A DNA stretch of 5,808 nucleotides, from IMG/VR virus record IMGVR_UViG_2548876695_000016; one strand, given 5' to 3'. The notes under the pieces were generated by a model. It worked only from the letters and a program-made list of their open reading frames with translations. It ran no database searches and was not told the origin of the DNA. Shown here one piece after another: positions 93 to 5,175 of this stretch. Position numbers and translations under genes: made by a program. Numbering within the stretch: position 1 is the first letter of the stretch; each line of letters opens with the position of its first letter. Origin of the DNA: a virus. Taxonomy: Duplodnaviria > Heunggongvirae > Uroviricota > Caudoviricetes.

Positions 93-178
93 CGAATTTC
101 TCCCGTGTAGAGGAACAGAGTTAAAAAGCCGGAAGCGGAATCAAATCACAGGATGACCATCTGCCAGTGGCAGGTCAT

Positions 179-205
179 AAAAAAAAGGCTGCGCAATGCG
201 CAGCC
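179..205 (-). terminator. Rho-independent terminator on the minus strand
   Basis: Minus-strand RNA would form an 8-bp GC-rich stem (GGCUGCGC / GCGCAGCC, plus coords 187-194 and 198-205) with a 3-nt loop, immediately followed by U8 (plus-strand A8 at 179-186). About 85 nt upstream of the left-edge gene start. Confidence 0.85.
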
Positions 206-634
206 AGAACTCACAAGGAAAATGATAAAAGGAATAACACTAGTGATGTACGCATGGCGCCTCCCGCTAAGTTCTGCAATGATCAAACAGAACTCGCTAC
301 GTGCCCTTAAAACTCGATCATTTAGCCCCTCCAAGGAGGATTCACCATGCGGTTGATTTTTTAATAAACAGTAAACAAAAAAGTCAAGAATTATGCATTC
401 TGTTCTTTCATCATCGGCCACAGCAATACCACAATGCCGCAGACCAGAGCGCCATCAGTCAGTACCAACATTATCCTGCTGGTGAAATCCATCATCACCA
501 TCACTAAAAGCAGGATCACAACAGCAAGCAGACACAGTTTATAAAACAATGTTCAGAAAACGCATTCAGCATGCCTAAGGTTCTATTCCTACGAATAGCC
601 AACTTGCAACTTAAAATATTATTTATGCAGCCAA

Positions 635-1393
635 TTAAATTCTGGTCCTTACAATATCAACCTGAAGATTCTTATCTTGTGCTGATTGATAAATGACAAA
701 CCTTTTACTACCTGCATTGAAAGAAGTAGACAAAACCAGACAATTATCATAACGAGCAAGAACATAATACCAACCATCATTATAATTAATCATTTCATAT
801 TCTTTCTTAAACTGTGGTTTGTAATATCCTGTCAGAAATGAAAAAAGCCAAAAATATGCCACAAAAGCAATCATCACAATCTCAAAAAAATGTTTTTTTA
901 TAAATGGCTTATCATAGAAGCATGATACCGATAAAAATCGCCCATAAGATCTTATCGAAATTGTAACCGCCAGCGCAATCGCTGCTGACAGTAGCAAAAG
1001 AGGTACCTGAATCTTCTGTCTCAATATAGAAAACTCAATAATTGCCGGCACAAACAATAATTCCACAGCAAAATAAAGGCGAAATACATTTAGCTCTTGC
1101 ATAGAATGTTTTCTTTTCACTGCGAAAAAGAATACAACACCAATACCCCAACCGATAAGAAATATAGCAATGACGATAACTGCAAAAAATAAACTTCTGG
1201 CAACATCATCAACACCTGCACCTACAATCCACCATGGGAAGCCGTAGTAAAAAGAAGTACCCCATCCATAGAAATAAGCACTCCCCCATCCAAGGCATCC
1301 CATGTAGGCAATAAAAAGTGAAGAACTCCTGAGCAGCGCACCATCCTTCATAACCACCCCAATACAAGATGATAACATTGGCTTACAACTCAT
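635..1393 (-). CDS. Hypothetical polytopic membrane protein (cargo gene, unknown function)
   Basis: 252-codon ORF with no competing long ORF in other frames; visibly AT-rich relative to flanking phage genes. About five hydrophobic helices (approx. residues 25-59, 67-91, 102-123, 129-147, 166-189), basic loops (KRKH, KKH), then a ~60-aa Tyr-rich hydrophilic C-terminal domain. First ATG at 1393 has no clear SD; in-frame ATGs at 1378 and 1351 (the latter preceded by GGGGTGG) are alternative starts. Confidence 0.7.
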   Translation of the reverse strand: MSCKPMLSSCIGVVMKDGALLRSSSLFIAYMGCLGWGSAYFYGWGTSFYYGFPWWIVGAGVDDVARSLFFAVIVIAIFLIGWGIGVVFFFAVKRKHSMQELNVFRLYFAVELLFVPAIIEFSILRQKIQVPLLLLSAAIALAVTISIRSYGRFLSVSCFYDKPFIKKHFFEIVMIAFVAYFWLFSFLTGYYKPQFKKEYEMINYNDGWYYVLARYDNCLVLSTSFNAGSKRFVIYQSAQDKNLQVDIVRTRI

Positions 1394-1490
1394 AACAAAA
1401 GCAATTCAATGCCGTCAAGAGGTTACAGGCTAAAAAAACTCTATTACATAGCAGCCAGCATGTTTACCGTACAAGTACAACTCAGGGCAT

Positions 1491-1514
1491 AAAAAAAACC
1501 CACTCGGCAGCGGG
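1491..1514 (-). terminator. Intrinsic terminator just downstream of the Q-like gene (candidate tR')
   Basis: Minus-strand RNA CCCGCUGCCGAGUGGG forms a 6-bp stem (including one G-U pair) with a GCCG loop, followed directly by U8 (plus-strand A8 at 1491-1498). The plus-strand equivalent has an A-C mismatch, so it is orientation-specific. Confidence 0.55.
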
Positions 1515-1550
1515 TTTATACATTTTTTACAACATACCAAATTTGCATGA

Positions 1551-1579
1551 AGTATATGGCTTTTAATCCAGTTTTGCAA
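1551..1579 (-). promoter_or_regulatory. Candidate sigma70 late promoter (pR'-like) overlapping the 3' end of the Q-like gene
   Basis: Minus strand: -35 TTGCAA (1579-1574), 17-nt spacer, -10 TATACT (1556-1551). Predicted start near 1544 gives a ~50-nt transcript ending at the 1491-1514 terminator; the initial transcribed region contains -10-like elements (TATGTT, TGTATAAA) of the kind that induce sigma-dependent pausing at Q-utilisation sites. Confidence 0.4.
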
Positions 1580-2336
1580 TATTTTGCTGTAAAAATGCTG
1601 CCTTTTGTTTTGAACGTGTTCTCGTCACAAGCAATAAAGCATCACTATCAAGCTGTAGAAAAATGTGCTTCATTGCAACCCAGCGTTCAGTAAATGTCTC
1701 GGACCAGTTTTTTGTTGTCACTCCCACCAATGATGCCAGTGTCTGGTATTCATAGGCCTCACGCCCTGCAAGTTCGCTCTTCACATCCTGTGCAGCCAGC
1801 CAGATTAACGTCTTCAGGCGATCCAGTGTCTTACCTGCAATTTTTCTGTTACTTAACAAATCTTTAAACTCGCTCCATGCCCATTGCGTTATGGTGACCT
1901 GATGCCCCCATCGAACGCTTTCGCTGTAACACCAAAGCAACCATGCTTTCTGATGTTCATCGAGAGACAAAACCGCGCGGCGCCATGAAGAGGTTGAGAA
2001 TTCAACCGGGCTGACCAAAGCAATGGATGAACCTTTTGCGTACGACTGCTTACCGGAAGTCGGCGTATTATCCAGCGTAATCATCTTGCCAGTTACCACA
2101 TCCAGAATGCGCGGCTTCTTTCGTTTGTATGTACCAGTATCAAATTGTGCATGCTCCTGCCAGGCTTCGAGCTGGCCTTTCGTTGCTCCGTTCAAGTCAG
2201 CAGTAGCTGCCATAAGTTGCTCACGAACATACTGTAAATATTGGGTATTCATGCAGTAAATCCTTTCTATATTTTGGCATAATTCTTCAACATTCGGTAA
2301 TCGTTCAAAACCGAATCGGGGAAACGACATAAGCAC
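1563..2336 (-). CDS. Putative late-gene antitermination protein Q (non-lambda Q family)
   Basis: 257-aa ORF (track start is GTG at 2336; an ATG at 2330 gives 255 aa) in the Q position downstream of nin genes, followed at once by a promoter-like element and terminator. It replaces a lambda-type Q whose 5' remnant lies at 3813-3902. Family assignment is by position and recalled size of ~250-aa Q proteins, not sequence comparison. Confidence 0.6.
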   Translation of the reverse strand: MLMSFPRFGFERLPNVEELCQNIERIYCMNTQYLQYVREQLMAATADLNGATKGQLEAWQEHAQFDTGTYKRKKPRILDVVTGKMITLDNTPTSGKQSYAKGSSIALVSPVEFSTSSWRRAVLSLDEHQKAWLLWCYSESVRWGHQVTITQWAWSEFKDLLSNRKIAGKTLDRLKTLIWLAAQDVKSELAGREAYEYQTLASLVGVTTKNWSETFTERWVAMKHIFLQLDSDALLLVTRTRSKQKAAFLQQNIAKLD

Positions 2337-2727
2337 AGGAGCCCCCAGCGACAGCGAAGGAGTTCTGATATATAAGACTCAGACATCATTCATTCCCCGG
2401 TTCTCCAATATCTGTTTCACTCATCATCCATAACTACCTGTAATTGCCCCCCTTTTTTTTGTAACAGTTCTTATATTGCTATATAGAATAGCCATTACTA
2501 ATGCATTTAAATTTAATAAAATAAAAATTATAAAAAACATAAAACACCACGTAAACACACTTAATAAAAACACCGTTACATTAAAAGATAATAAAAACCG
2601 CAATAAAAAACGAATAAATCAATTGTCTCACGCAATTATAAAACATCATATTGATTACGCACCTTGTATTACAAACTCATGTATGTAAAATACGCGCACC
2701 ATTCAAAAAAAAGGAAGACAATAACAT

Positions 2728-3687
2728 ATGAAAAAAAGTGTCATCGCTGGCGTCTTTATTGCTCTGTCATTTACCACGTGTTCAGCTATCGCGAACAGCC
2801 TTGCATTATCATTAGCAAATGATGATGCAGGGAAGTTTCAACCAATACTTAATGATATTTATGGCAATAAACATGAAAACAGAGATGATTACTCACAAGG
2901 CTTATTTCTGGGATATAGCCACGATATCTCAGACTCGAGCCAATTATCTCTCCATATTGCGCAAGATATTTACTCTCCATCAGGCAGTAATAAAAGACAC
3001 AACACAGCTGTAACTGGAGACAGAGCTTTTAGTGCATACACTCACACTGGTATTGAATGGAACTCCCTTGCGAATGACTGGATTCGCTATCGATTAGGTA
3101 CTGACATAGGTGTTGTTGGCCCCGACGCAGGCGGTCAGAAAGTACAAAATAAAGCTCATGAGATTATTGGGGCAGAAAAATATCATGCATGGGATGATCA
3201 AATAGAGAATCGCTACGGTTATACTGTAAAAGGGATGCTATCCATGACACCAAGTATGGATATTTTAGGTGCTAATGTTGGATTATACCCTGAAGTTTCT
3301 GCTGTTACTGGAAACTTATTTCAATATGTAGCATATGGCGCAACCATTGCCATTGGTAATGATAAAACCTTCAATTCGGATAATGGCTTTGGTCTGCTGG
3401 CTCCCCGTGGTTTAATGCATATGTCCGATACAAGCGGATTCAAATACAAGATTTTTGCAGGTATGGAAAGACGAGATGTCAATCGCAACTATACTCTCGA
3501 AGGAAAAACAATACAGACGAAACAAACAACAGTATCGCTAAACAAAACTGTTGATGAATATCAAGTTGGCGCAACAATTGGGTATGCACCTGTAGCCTTC
3601 ACACTAGCATTTAATAAAGTAACATCAGAATTCAAGACAGGGGATGACTATTCATTTATAAATGGAGCAATCACCTTCTTTTTTTAA
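2728..3687 (+). CDS. lpxR: Lipid A 3'-O-deacylase LpxR family outer-membrane beta-barrel protein
   Basis: 319 aa with AGGAAG Shine-Dalgarno upstream of ATG 2728; N-terminal signal peptide MKKSVIAGVFIALSFTTCSAIA; C-terminal FFF typical of outer-membrane barrels. With cleavage after AIA, mature Asn9-Asp10 (codons at 2818-2823) and His122 (3157-3159) coincide with the LpxR catalytic residues as I recall them; position 34 is Ser where I recall Thr. Length matches the 319-aa Salmonella LpxR precursor. AT-rich gene and flanks. Confidence 0.85.
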   Translation: MKKSVIAGVFIALSFTTCSAIANSLALSLANDDAGKFQPILNDIYGNKHENRDDYSQGLFLGYSHDISDSSQLSLHIAQDIYSPSGSNKRHNTAVTGDRAFSAYTHTGIEWNSLANDWIRYRLGTDIGVVGPDAGGQKVQNKAHEIIGAEKYHAWDDQIENRYGYTVKGMLSMTPSMDILGANVGLYPEVSAVTGNLFQYVAYGATIAIGNDKTFNSDNGFGLLAPRGLMHMSDTSGFKYKIFAGMERRDVNRNYTLEGKTIQTKQTTVSLNKTVDEYQVGATIGYAPVAFTLAFNKVTSEFKTGDDYSFINGAITFFF

Positions 3688-3812
3688 CTGAATTGAATTC
3701 AATCAAAATAACATAAGTCCAACAAAAACATAAAGTGCGAAATGAATGCCAGCTCCATTTATTTCGCACTATAAAAGATTAAAAGTTGCAATAAAATAAT
3801 AAAATGACTCAG

Positions 3813-3902
3813 TTACGAAAACCAATAAACTGTGGCCAGTAGTGAGTCGCTCATCATCGGGCTTTTTGGCGAATGAAATTTAGCTACGCTTTCGAGTCTC
3901 AT
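3813..3902 (-). pseudogene. 5' remnant of a lambda-type Q antiterminator gene (29 codons then stop)
   Basis: Minus-strand ATG at 3902-3900 overlaps the phosphatase stop (ATGA) and reads [29 protein letters not shown]. The first 20 residues equal the lambda Q N-terminus as I recall it ([25 protein letters not shown]...); similarity decays over codons 21-27 and the frame terminates. Confidence 0.75.
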
Positions 3903-4564
3903 GCGCCTTCTCCCTGTACCTGAATCAATGTGAGGTTTCCGCAGAACACTGCGCCAGTATCGATATACATCTGGTTGGCAAATTTGAGTGGTTTCACTGC
4001 TGGCGTATGACCAAAGATGAACGTGTCCGCGCCTTTGATTTCTTTCACGATCCCGTCTTGTGAGTTGCTGATTCGTTCGCGGTTCCAGATTACCTGCTGA
4101 TGATCAACTGGCTTTCCAAACTCGTATTTATCACAAGGATAATCGGCGTGGCAAATGACATATTTTTTATCTTTGCTCACCAGTTCGATGATTAACGGAA
4201 GTTCTTCTGCTTTATGGGCAAGAACTTTAGCCAGAGTCTCTTTGTCGTAATCGAGATTAAAGAACCAGCCACCGCCATTAAGCAGCCAGTGATTAACGTT
4301 TCCACGCTCTGATAAGCCATCAATCATCATTTGCTCATGGTTTCCACGCACAGCTCTGAACCAGGGGAATGTGATTAATTCCAGACATTCGACGTTCTCT
4401 GTACCGCGATCAACCAAATCGCCAACCGAGATGAGCAGGTCTTTTTTGGTGTCGAATCCAATCGTATCCAGTTTGTTCATCAGGTTCGTGTAGCATCCGT
4501 GCAGGTCGCCAGCTACCCAAATATTTCGGTATTTGCTGCCATCAATTCTTTCGTAGATATTCAT
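3899..4564 (-). CDS. ninI: Ser/Thr protein phosphatase, lambda phosphatase (NinI / ORF221) homolog
   Basis: 221 aa, near-identical to the recalled lambda phosphatase; metallophosphatase motifs GDLHG, GDLVDRG and GNHE present; start ATG overlaps the ninG stop (ATGA). Confidence 0.93.
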
Positions 4565-5175
4565 GCAGCCTCACTTCTGCTGTTTCGCAGGTCTTTGAGT
4601 TTCTGTTGGTACTCTGCCTTGATCGCCTTGCACTCTTCGACAGTCCAGCGATGGCGGTTATGGTTTGATTCGATTTCGTCTACTGCTTCCTGCCCGATGC
4701 GGCTAATCAGTTCGACGCGATACGGAACGAGATTTCCGCTTTTGTGCTGGTTGCACACCACGCATTGCTTGTGAATATTGCGTTCATCAAATCGGAGTTG
4801 AGGTGCCGCAGCAGTTGTCCGGTAATGTCCGGCATCCCACTGAGCAGACGTGAGCGTTCCGCACGAGATACATGGTAAGTCGCGGTCTCTTTCTCTGATG
4901 AAGGCGTTTACGGCTTGTTGGGCTTGTTTAATCCAGTAACTGCGGGGCTTTAAGGCGAGTTTTCGAATCTTAAGTTTATCTTTCTGTTTCTGCTCCTCTC
5001 GTCGTCGTTTCTTCTCTGCTGCTTTTTCCGCTTTTTCGCGTTCTTTACTTCGTCGTTCGAGTGCTATCTTGGTTCCACACTCTGGAGAGCACCACCACTG
5101 ATTAGCGAATGCAAGGTGAAACCATTCCCGACATTCATCGTTTTTACATCGTCTTCGCGCTGGTTTAGCCATCAT
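4561..5175 (-). CDS. ninG: NinG (Rap) recombination-associated protein
   Basis: 204 aa beginning [19 protein letters not shown] with Cys-rich motifs ([24 protein letters not shown]), matching recalled lambda NinG; start overlaps the ninF 3' end. Confidence 0.92.

Follow-up and report, generated by a model that had tools for sequence, protein, structure and literature searches.

The gene analysed here lies on the minus strand of a 5,808-nucleotide stretch of viral DNA (IMG/VR record IMGVR_UViG_2548876695_000016, Caudoviricetes; this whole stretch is called the window, and coordinates refer to it), and its closest described counterpart is a gene of phage 434. The 434 locus is identical in protein and arrangement, with ninG, a phosphatase gene, lpxR, ylcG, a Q82-type Q, a terminator, the gene itself, the TciB gene, nanS-p and the holin gene following one another, and the product CPT_434_68, annotated as 'putative membrane protein', is 100% identical to that of the window. 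A second counterpart is STM1630 of Salmonella Typhimurium (SL1344_1560), which a published study describes as a gene of unknown function bound by H-NS. Like the window gene, it encodes 238 amino acids (aa), is AT-rich and horizontally acquired, and is flanked by virulence cargo; unlike it, it is chromosomal and is transcribed from a promoter of its own, situated about 220 nt ahead of it and unrelated to the leader in the window. The third is tfpB of Moraxella, recovered in our genome scan of M. bovis as a 261-aa open reading frame (ORF) between two pilin cassettes of the pilin inversion segment. TfpB of M. bovis and M. lacunata resembles the window protein in helix 1 (AYxYGWGxxxYxGYPWW), in its five helices and in a C-terminal beta domain with YYxL. 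The Moraxella gene, however, is inside a Piv-invertible pilin segment, where its expression is probably phase-variable together with one pilin type, whereas the window gene occupies a lambdoid late cargo slot with no pilin gene nearby. No function of Moraxella TfpB was found in the searchable literature. We consider it practically certain that the window protein is a member of this TfpB/STM1630 family, with five helices and a C-terminal beta domain, and propose with middling confidence that it acts as a conversion factor, without being an enzyme, on the periplasmic face of the inner membrane.

In support of the family assignment, the protein matched PHROG 1521, which has no assigned function, along the entire profile (positions 1-222 of 222, E 2.1e-154). 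PF27470 'TfpB' is given in the precomputed Pfam table to the identical 247-aa protein and to more than 100 homologues, and one E. coli homologue is labelled 'STM1630 family protein' by the annotation pipeline PGAP. BLASTP aligned M. bovis TfpB with the window protein at 27% identity over 240 aa (E 5e-23). The Salmonella homologue beside sseJ is 46% identical, and it is STM1630, since the published STM1630 deletion primer encodes NSSMLLAYLGGLGWG, that is, residues 9-23 of this homologue. Both the object and its family are thus already known, the former as an annotated phage 434 gene and the latter under names in Pfam, PHROGs and PGAP. A preliminary description of the window had not recognised the family, which these catalogues correct; it had also called the function undescribed, and this still holds for the whole family. 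The window protein had no match in NCBIfam or in a local Pfam copy lacking PF27470, a sequence-profile search of the PDB returned only noise at E > 2, and literature searches found no mention of WP_001302581 or PF27470. The family is small: only 72 representatives were found by a profile search of 1.84 billion, and in the genome scan its members ranged over Enterobacteriaceae, Pasteurellaceae, Neisseriaceae and Moraxellaceae. A more distant subfamily, of about 15-25% identity, occurs in Mangrovibacter, Enterobacter and Klebsiella. Its neighbours include a Hin-type serine invertase gene in Mangrovibacter phragmitis, and umuDC-like genes and a Wzy_C/pectate-lyase pair in Klebsiella aerogenes; a search around the Mangrovibacter homologue beside the invertase gene gave no convincing inverted repeats of the kind that bound an invertible segment.

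The longest ORF, with its stop codon at 635-637 and its first ATG at 1393, would encode 252 aa, while RefSeq/PGAP starts the protein at the ATG at 1378 (247 aa, WP_001302581.1, 'hypothetical protein'). In other genera, full-length homologues have 236-240 aa and, in protein and DNA alignments, all begin at the ATG at 1351, so the most likely product is a protein of 238 aa that starts there with MKDGALL. The deposited phage 434 annotation, which also uses the ATG at 1378, differs from ours only in this start. The coding sequence of the TfpB/STM1630-family inner-membrane protein would accordingly occupy 635-1351 on the minus strand (238 codons plus stop), as indicated by the ORF, the homologue alignment, PHROG 1521 and the structural model. 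The N-terminal extension of the longest ORF (1352-1393, minus strand, with the ATGs at 1393 and 1378) overlaps a promoter-like site and is probably not translated; it is absent from the homologues of 236-240 aa, the upstream sequence has no conservation at the protein level, and the PHROG profiles start at residue 15 or 31 of the 252-aa ORF. Pairwise ratios of nonsynonymous to synonymous substitution rates (dN/dS) were 0.06-0.19 against ten homologues, a sign of purifying selection, and because of that the gene is a real, functional coding sequence and not a chance ORF.

The structure of the protein was modelled with AlphaFold2 (AF2) on an alignment of 66 diverse homologues, which align end to end. 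The model had a pLDDT (predicted local distance difference test score) of 80.7 and a pTM (predicted template modelling score) of 0.75, whereas an earlier run with 28 close homologues was poor (pLDDT 60). It contains helices at residues 3-36, 47-79, 84-111, 116-137 and 155-181 and a five-strand beta domain at 184-235, and the C-terminal domain of about 55 residues is SH3-like in it. No match to the predicted fold was found among solved structures. Hydropathy analysis gave four clear hydrophobic spans in addition to an atypical Gly/aromatic helix 1; with the model, it bears out the earlier count of about five transmembrane helices. The mean numbers of Lys and Arg residues per segment in the 66 homologues, from the N-terminus on, are 1.6, 0.3, 3.4, 0.9 and 4.2, and they alternate in the same way in each of the three subfamilies. 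From this we infer that the N-terminus is inside and the C-terminal domain is probably periplasmic, which agrees with the side of the membrane to which the preliminary description had assigned it.

The conserved positions gather on the predicted periplasmic side, at residues 21-54, at the end of helix 5 and in the YYxL strand. Only Y26 is invariant in the family, and A15, A25, G31, G37, P39, G175, Y195 and L198 are conserved in at least 90% of its members; helices 3 and 4 are variable, while the periplasmic face is conserved. The Gly/aromatic-rich first segment that had been pointed out earlier is indeed present: GWGSAYFYGWGTSFYYGFPWW, residues 21-41 of the 238-aa form, contains five Gly, four Trp, four Tyr and three Phe residues. 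This segment, with its GWGSAYFY and GWGTSFYY units, is the best-conserved stretch of the family. The two units are encoded in helix 1 by a 24-nt tandem duplication (1242-1289, minus strand; two copies of 75% identity), which is old, as the same 8-residue periodicity of GWGxxxxY units is visible also in Moraxella TfpB. The C-terminal part is Tyr-rich, as had been noticed, with 8 Tyr among the last 63 residues (12.7%).

The family alignment of 66 sequences contains no conserved constellation of acidic, His, Ser or Lys residues, and this lack of a polar catalytic constellation argues against the protein being an enzyme. It bears directly on the suggestion that the protein might be an intramembrane protease of the CPBP/Abi type (PF02517; motifs EExxxR, FxxxH and HxxxB), to which the preliminary description had noted a partial resemblance. 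The ELLF and FxxxH strings do occur in the window protein, but E97 is unique to it, H154 occurs in 31 of the 66 family members, there is no second His motif, and no Pfam match was obtained at E <= 0.1. We rejected this possibility on sequence conservation and regard the resemblance as due to chance, such a protease being barely credible here. Binding would be the most economical mechanism for the protein, because there is no enzyme signature and no fixed partner, and because the gene is under purifying selection and has a conserved periplasmic aromatic surface. In the proposed mechanism, the protein would act by binding rather than by catalysis at the outer face of the inner membrane. Its binding surface would combine loop 1 with the Gly/aromatic end of helix 1 and the beginning of helix 2, and also with the last part of helix 5 and the YYxL strand; this conserved surface would lie on the periplasmic side and could engage an envelope component there.

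The product would most likely serve the lysogen, and not the virion or lytic growth, in lysogenic conversion or host adaptation, and the evidence on lytic growth comes from phage 434B. According to the 434 genome paper, 434B is a clear-plaque mutant in which DLP12 DNA has taken the place of a segment that runs from ylcG, by way of Q, as far as the lysis region. In the 434B record this segment reads Q, nmpC::IS5, holin, and it contains no homologue of the gene. As 434B forms plaques, the gene is not needed for plaque formation. A late phage function that modulates the timing of lysis or release would fit the position of the gene downstream of pR'/tR' and upstream of the holin, endolysin and spanin genes. 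Such a function was rejected, as 434B lyses cells and forms plaques without the gene; many homologues are also found outside any prophage, the G+C content differs from that of the phage backbone, and the protein matched no family of lysis proteins, all of which make a role in lysis highly improbable.

The G+C content of the gene is 36%, compared with 45-49% in ninG, the phosphatase gene and Q, its presence varies among related phages, and it is dispensable for lytic growth, as is characteristic of lambdoid morons. Most likely, it is a self-contained cargo gene, or moron, with its own upstream leader. This leader, 144 nt long (1352-1495, minus strand), moves with the gene behind different Q modules: in prophages with a lambda-type Q, similarity to the window sets in 144 nt ahead of the ATG, directly after tR'. 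It contains a sigma-70 promoter-like site (1369-1398, minus strand; TTGTTA, an 18-nt spacer and TATCAT, 9 of 12 consensus positions matched in a consensus scan) about 20 nt upstream of the ATG at 1351, and a TTGACG hexamer is present at 1418-1413. The promoter-like stretch is kept in the copy on plasmids of enterotoxigenic E. coli (ETEC), where the nucleotide homology reaches window position 1422. Downstream of the gene, the next predicted terminator is at 205-187, two small ORFs further on. Its place in this lambdoid prophage of the phage 434 type is the slot that separates Q/tR' from the lysis genes. That an AT-rich gene lies in the cargo slot after Q/tR' had been recognised before, and this slot holds stxA and stxB followed by tfpB in Enterobacter cloacae.

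The distribution of the gene was examined in E. coli with a 1,061-bp query (window 500-1560), the matches to which cover at least 80% of it and are mostly at least 95% identical. Close DNA copies were found in 692 of 5,426 complete E. coli genomes (about 13%), mostly of the enterohaemorrhagic type, at up to three places per genome, and 618 E. coli genomes contain the entire block of lpxR, ylcG, Q and the gene. Among phage records, only 434 and 2B8 matched the protein, and the IMG/VR scan yielded only identical copies in E. coli prophages. A survey of whether the gene recurs at the Q-to-holin junction of other prophages had been proposed, and it does so behind three unrelated antiterminator families. 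These are the Q82-type (PF06323) in the window, the lambda-type (PF03589) in at least 25 of the 64 IMG/VR prophage loci with an identical protein, and a PF06530-type antiterminator in Yersinia enterocolitica and in an E. coli variant of 68% identity. In E. cloacae (CP017475), the order in the slot is antiterminator, stxA, stxB, tfpB and lysis genes, the toxin being stx1-like (RIP and SLT_beta).

Outside prophages, the gene lies beside eltAB and estB on ETEC plasmids, where eltAB and tfpB occur together in 19 of the 74 plasmids matching the block; those with both include plasmids of porcine isolates, and the plasmids sampled from human stool bore the part encoding heat-labile toxin (LT) only. 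In Shigella pINV, it is among insertion sequence elements. In Salmonella, it lies between steB and sseJ, and in Citrobacter rodentium it is beside a split lpxR at the same chromosomal site, so that the subspecies of S. enterica and C. rodentium have fixed copies at one locus. Other E. coli copies are near iroBC and bor, the gene of Glaesserella parasuis is beside cdtABC, and that of Mannheimia is beside a gene for a YadA-like adhesin. Solitary copies amid unrelated housekeeping genes were found in Avibacterium, Actinobacillus, Haemophilus, Aggregatibacter and Neisseria, and genomes of Aggregatibacter, Mannheimia and E. coli contain several paralogues each. No conserved partner gene was found across the contexts examined. 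Family members are directly beside three unrelated secreted toxin operons, namely stx1-like, eltAB and cdtABC, and the gene is among the commonest uncharacterised passengers of enterobacterial virulence elements.

These contexts are relevant to the idea, named in the preliminary description alongside lysogenic conversion, that the protein serves superinfection exclusion or anti-phage defence by blocking the entry of an incoming phage genome or triggering abortive infection. P22 SieA, T4 Imm and HK97 gp15 are small single-gene inner-membrane exclusion proteins, which have no partner and are dispensable for lytic growth. The window gene is comparable in that it encodes a membrane protein on its own in a prophage moron slot and on plasmids, is present in up to three copies per E. 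coli genome and is dispensable for lytic growth, and the conserved face of its product would be periplasmic, where ejection proteins act. However, the PHROG and PADLOC searches revealed no sequence or profile similarity to exclusion proteins of the SieA/Imm/gp15 type, and PADLOC-DB 2.0 contained no defence family matching the window protein at E <= 1. Moreover, unlike those proteins, TfpB homologues are fixed in chromosomal loci that are not prophages, at one site in Salmonella subspecies and Citrobacter and amid housekeeping genes in Pasteurellaceae and Neisseria, and the family is under strong purifying selection. The expression of STM1630 under intracellular-type conditions points elsewhere as well, and we consider an exclusion or defence function rather unlikely.

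Published data that bear on a host-adaptive role exist for STM1630. It is expressed in medium inducing Salmonella pathogenicity island 2 (SPI-2) and in macrophages, and in a regulator-mutant compendium it co-clusters with SPI-2 genes and with PhoP-type envelope genes such as pagD, pqaA, ugtL and lpxO. Two single-nucleotide polymorphisms in its promoter silence it in all sequence type 313 (ST313) isolates tested. Its deletion in strain 4/74 led to more intramacrophage replication, whereas signature-tagged STM1630 mutants were attenuated in calves and chicks, as cited in the STM1630 study, and few transposon insertions are found in the gene. A host-adaptive role is suggested by these expression data and by the chromosomal copies that have become fixed in Salmonella, Citrobacter, Pasteurellaceae and Neisseriaceae, and we infer that the benefit goes to the lysogen.

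With respect to the envelope component that a non-enzymatic conversion factor would engage, the remodelling of lipid A or lipopolysaccharide (LPS) has the most contextual support among the targets, owing to the neighbouring LpxR and PmrD genes and to the PhoP/SPI-2-type expression of the Salmonella copy, but as a specific target it is still a speculative and rather unlikely one. lpxR is the most recurrent neighbour and occurs in three arrangements: divergent with Q between them in the window, divergent and adjacent in C. rodentium, and convergent and adjacent in ECOR29-type prophages, in one case together with pmrD. A function strictly tied to lpxR or to AB toxins was rejected, as many copies have no such neighbours. 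A further reading, which we regard as unlikely, is that the family represents a new single-component envelope modulator, carried together with toxins that are assembled in the periplasm (Shiga toxin 1, Stx1; LT; cytolethal distending toxin, CDT) and with lipid A modifiers (LpxR and PmrD). The aromatic periplasmic belt and the SH3-like domain would then bind an envelope machine or a lipid-linked intermediate, and such binding would alter the properties of the outer membrane, the formation of vesicles or the release of toxin while a host is being colonised.

Several points weigh against a conversion factor of this kind. The topology is taken only from the positive-inside rule and a predicted model. 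The promoter-like site in the leader is a consensus match only, and such sites are no more numerous in the region than in shuffled sequence. lpxR is absent from at least 25 of the 64 prophage loci with an identical gene, those with a lambda-type Q, and the copies in Salmonella, on Shigella pINV and in ETEC have no adjacent lpxR either, and the link to lpxR is thus not an obligatory one; the association with virulence cargo as a whole may reflect a shared insertion hot spot and not a shared function. As to the published data, the phenotypes in Salmonella are weak and inconsistent. A study of strain D23580 attributes similarly low transposon density to H-NS and not to essentiality, and the hypermotility that a deletion-library screen reported for STM1630 was not among the phenotypes confirmed with clean deletions. 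All of these expression and mutant data, moreover, concern Salmonella STM1630 and not the E. coli/434 protein.

Two further explanations were considered. According to the first, the protein would be an accessory factor of pilins or pseudopilins, which binds pilin-like subunits in the inner membrane and adjusts how type IV pili, or the pseudopilus of type II secretion, are assembled. The model for it comes, by analogy, from the TfpY/TfpZ/FimB-like proteins of Pseudomonas, Dichelobacter, Acinetobacter and Neisseria, which have no enzymatic motif, are encoded beside a pilin gene and are thought to bind pilins (PMC11841053). These proteins share with the TfpB family a multi-pass arrangement in the inner membrane, a periplasmic C-terminal domain and the lack of an enzymatic motif. 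The founding tfpB, in addition, lies inside the Piv-invertible Moraxella pilin segment, downstream of one pilin cassette, and the family is concentrated in the lineages with type IV pili, that is, Moraxellaceae, Neisseriaceae and Pasteurellaceae. However, compared by their description (PMC11841053), the TfpY/FimB-like proteins have three helices and a larger, mixed alpha/beta domain, in contrast to the five helices and the all-beta domain of 55 residues of the window protein, and nothing recognisable as TfpY or FimB was among the 72 family representatives, whose organisms were not listed; the relation is one of analogy and not of membership. Among the loci scanned, a prepilin motif within 6 kb was found only at those of Moraxella. 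Type IV pili are not known in S. Typhimurium and Shigella, both of which have the gene, and this likewise counts against a pilin-related function, which we judge to be distinctly unlikely.

According to the second explanation, the protein would be an orphan immunity protein against a membrane-acting bacteriocin or a contact-dependent toxin. It would explain why a small membrane protein is encoded alone, without a partner, in variable loci, why a single genome of Aggregatibacter, Mannheimia or E. coli may encode several paralogues, and why helices 3 and 4 vary while the periplasmic face is conserved. Nevertheless, no matching toxin gene is consistently nearby, and the toxins encoded beside family members, LT, Stx1 and CDT, are directed at eukaryotic cells and call for no immunity protein. 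As no similarity to known immunity families was found either, we consider an immunity function very unlikely.

A non-enzymatic conversion factor at the periplasmic face is therefore the reading that we retain at the strength given above, with the family itself not being a new discovery, as it has been named and Salmonella mutants of it exist already. The preliminary description was accurate for the most part, except on the family and on the CPBP/Abi resemblance. The gene would nonetheless merit experimental work, being prevalent on virulence elements and encoding a predicted fold unmatched among solved structures. Knowledge of what its product targets would add to the picture of what hosts gain from lambdoid prophages, and would explain the silencing of the STM1630 copy in invasive Salmonella ST313.

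The window as a whole corresponds to the late region of phage 434. Read on the minus strand, it comprises ninG, the phosphatase gene, what is left of a lambda-type Q, the oppositely oriented lpxR, ylcG and the Q82-type Q, after which follow a pR'-like promoter, a terminator, the tfpB-family gene, a DUF3927/TciB gene, an STnc100-like element with its terminator, and the start of nanS-p. ninG is at 4561-5175 and the gene of the lambda-type Ser/Thr phosphatase at 3899-4564, both on the minus strand. Behind the latter, at about 3804-3893 on the same strand, an N-terminal fragment of a lambda-type Q of 29 codons remains, which suggests that the block of lpxR, ylcG and the Q82-type Q took the place of a lambda-type Q; the observation concerns this fragment and window 2267-3687. 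In many prophages with an identical gene, ninG, the phosphatase gene and the lambda Q are still present and lpxR is missing, the junction of the two types being directly after tR'. lpxR itself (2728-3687, plus strand; PF09982, E 7e-40), whose product is a lipid A 3'-O-deacylase, is a moron too and also AT-rich.

The Q82-type antiterminator gene Q (1563-2336, minus strand; PF06323, E 1.7e-91, and also annotated in phage 434) is overlapped at its end by a pR'-like late promoter found in a consensus scan (1551-1579, minus strand; TTGCAA, 17-nt spacer, TATACT). Downstream of it, the late leader has a tR'-like intrinsic terminator (1496-1517, minus strand; a 9-bp stem and a T run), which coincides with the terminator annotated in phage 434. 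The promoter and tR' together (1496-1579) would yield a short 6S-like late leader RNA, and this stretch resembles STnc240 weakly, with a score below threshold (28 bits vs 55).

Directly downstream of the tfpB-family gene, a DUF3927/TciB-like membrane protein of 52 aa is encoded (391-549, minus strand; PF13064, E 7e-14), which the phage 434 record names TciB after phage P1. It adjoins the tfpB-family gene in 79 of 80 IMG/VR loci and is not beside it in the Salmonella, Citrobacter, Shigella or ETEC contexts. Further on, the stretch 176-380 (minus strand) has a match to Rfam STnc100 below the gathering score (41.4 bits vs 47, E 1.3e-6), which ends at the strong intrinsic terminator at 205-187. 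It overlaps the gene of CPT_434_70 (window 146-334), a 62-aa 'putative membrane protein' without a Pfam match, and may thus encode a small RNA instead of, or besides, the small protein. At the window end, which cuts it, the start of a nanS-p type esterase gene (DUF1737-SASA-DUF6645) occupies 1-92 on the minus strand; in strain E2865, nanS-p is frameshifted.

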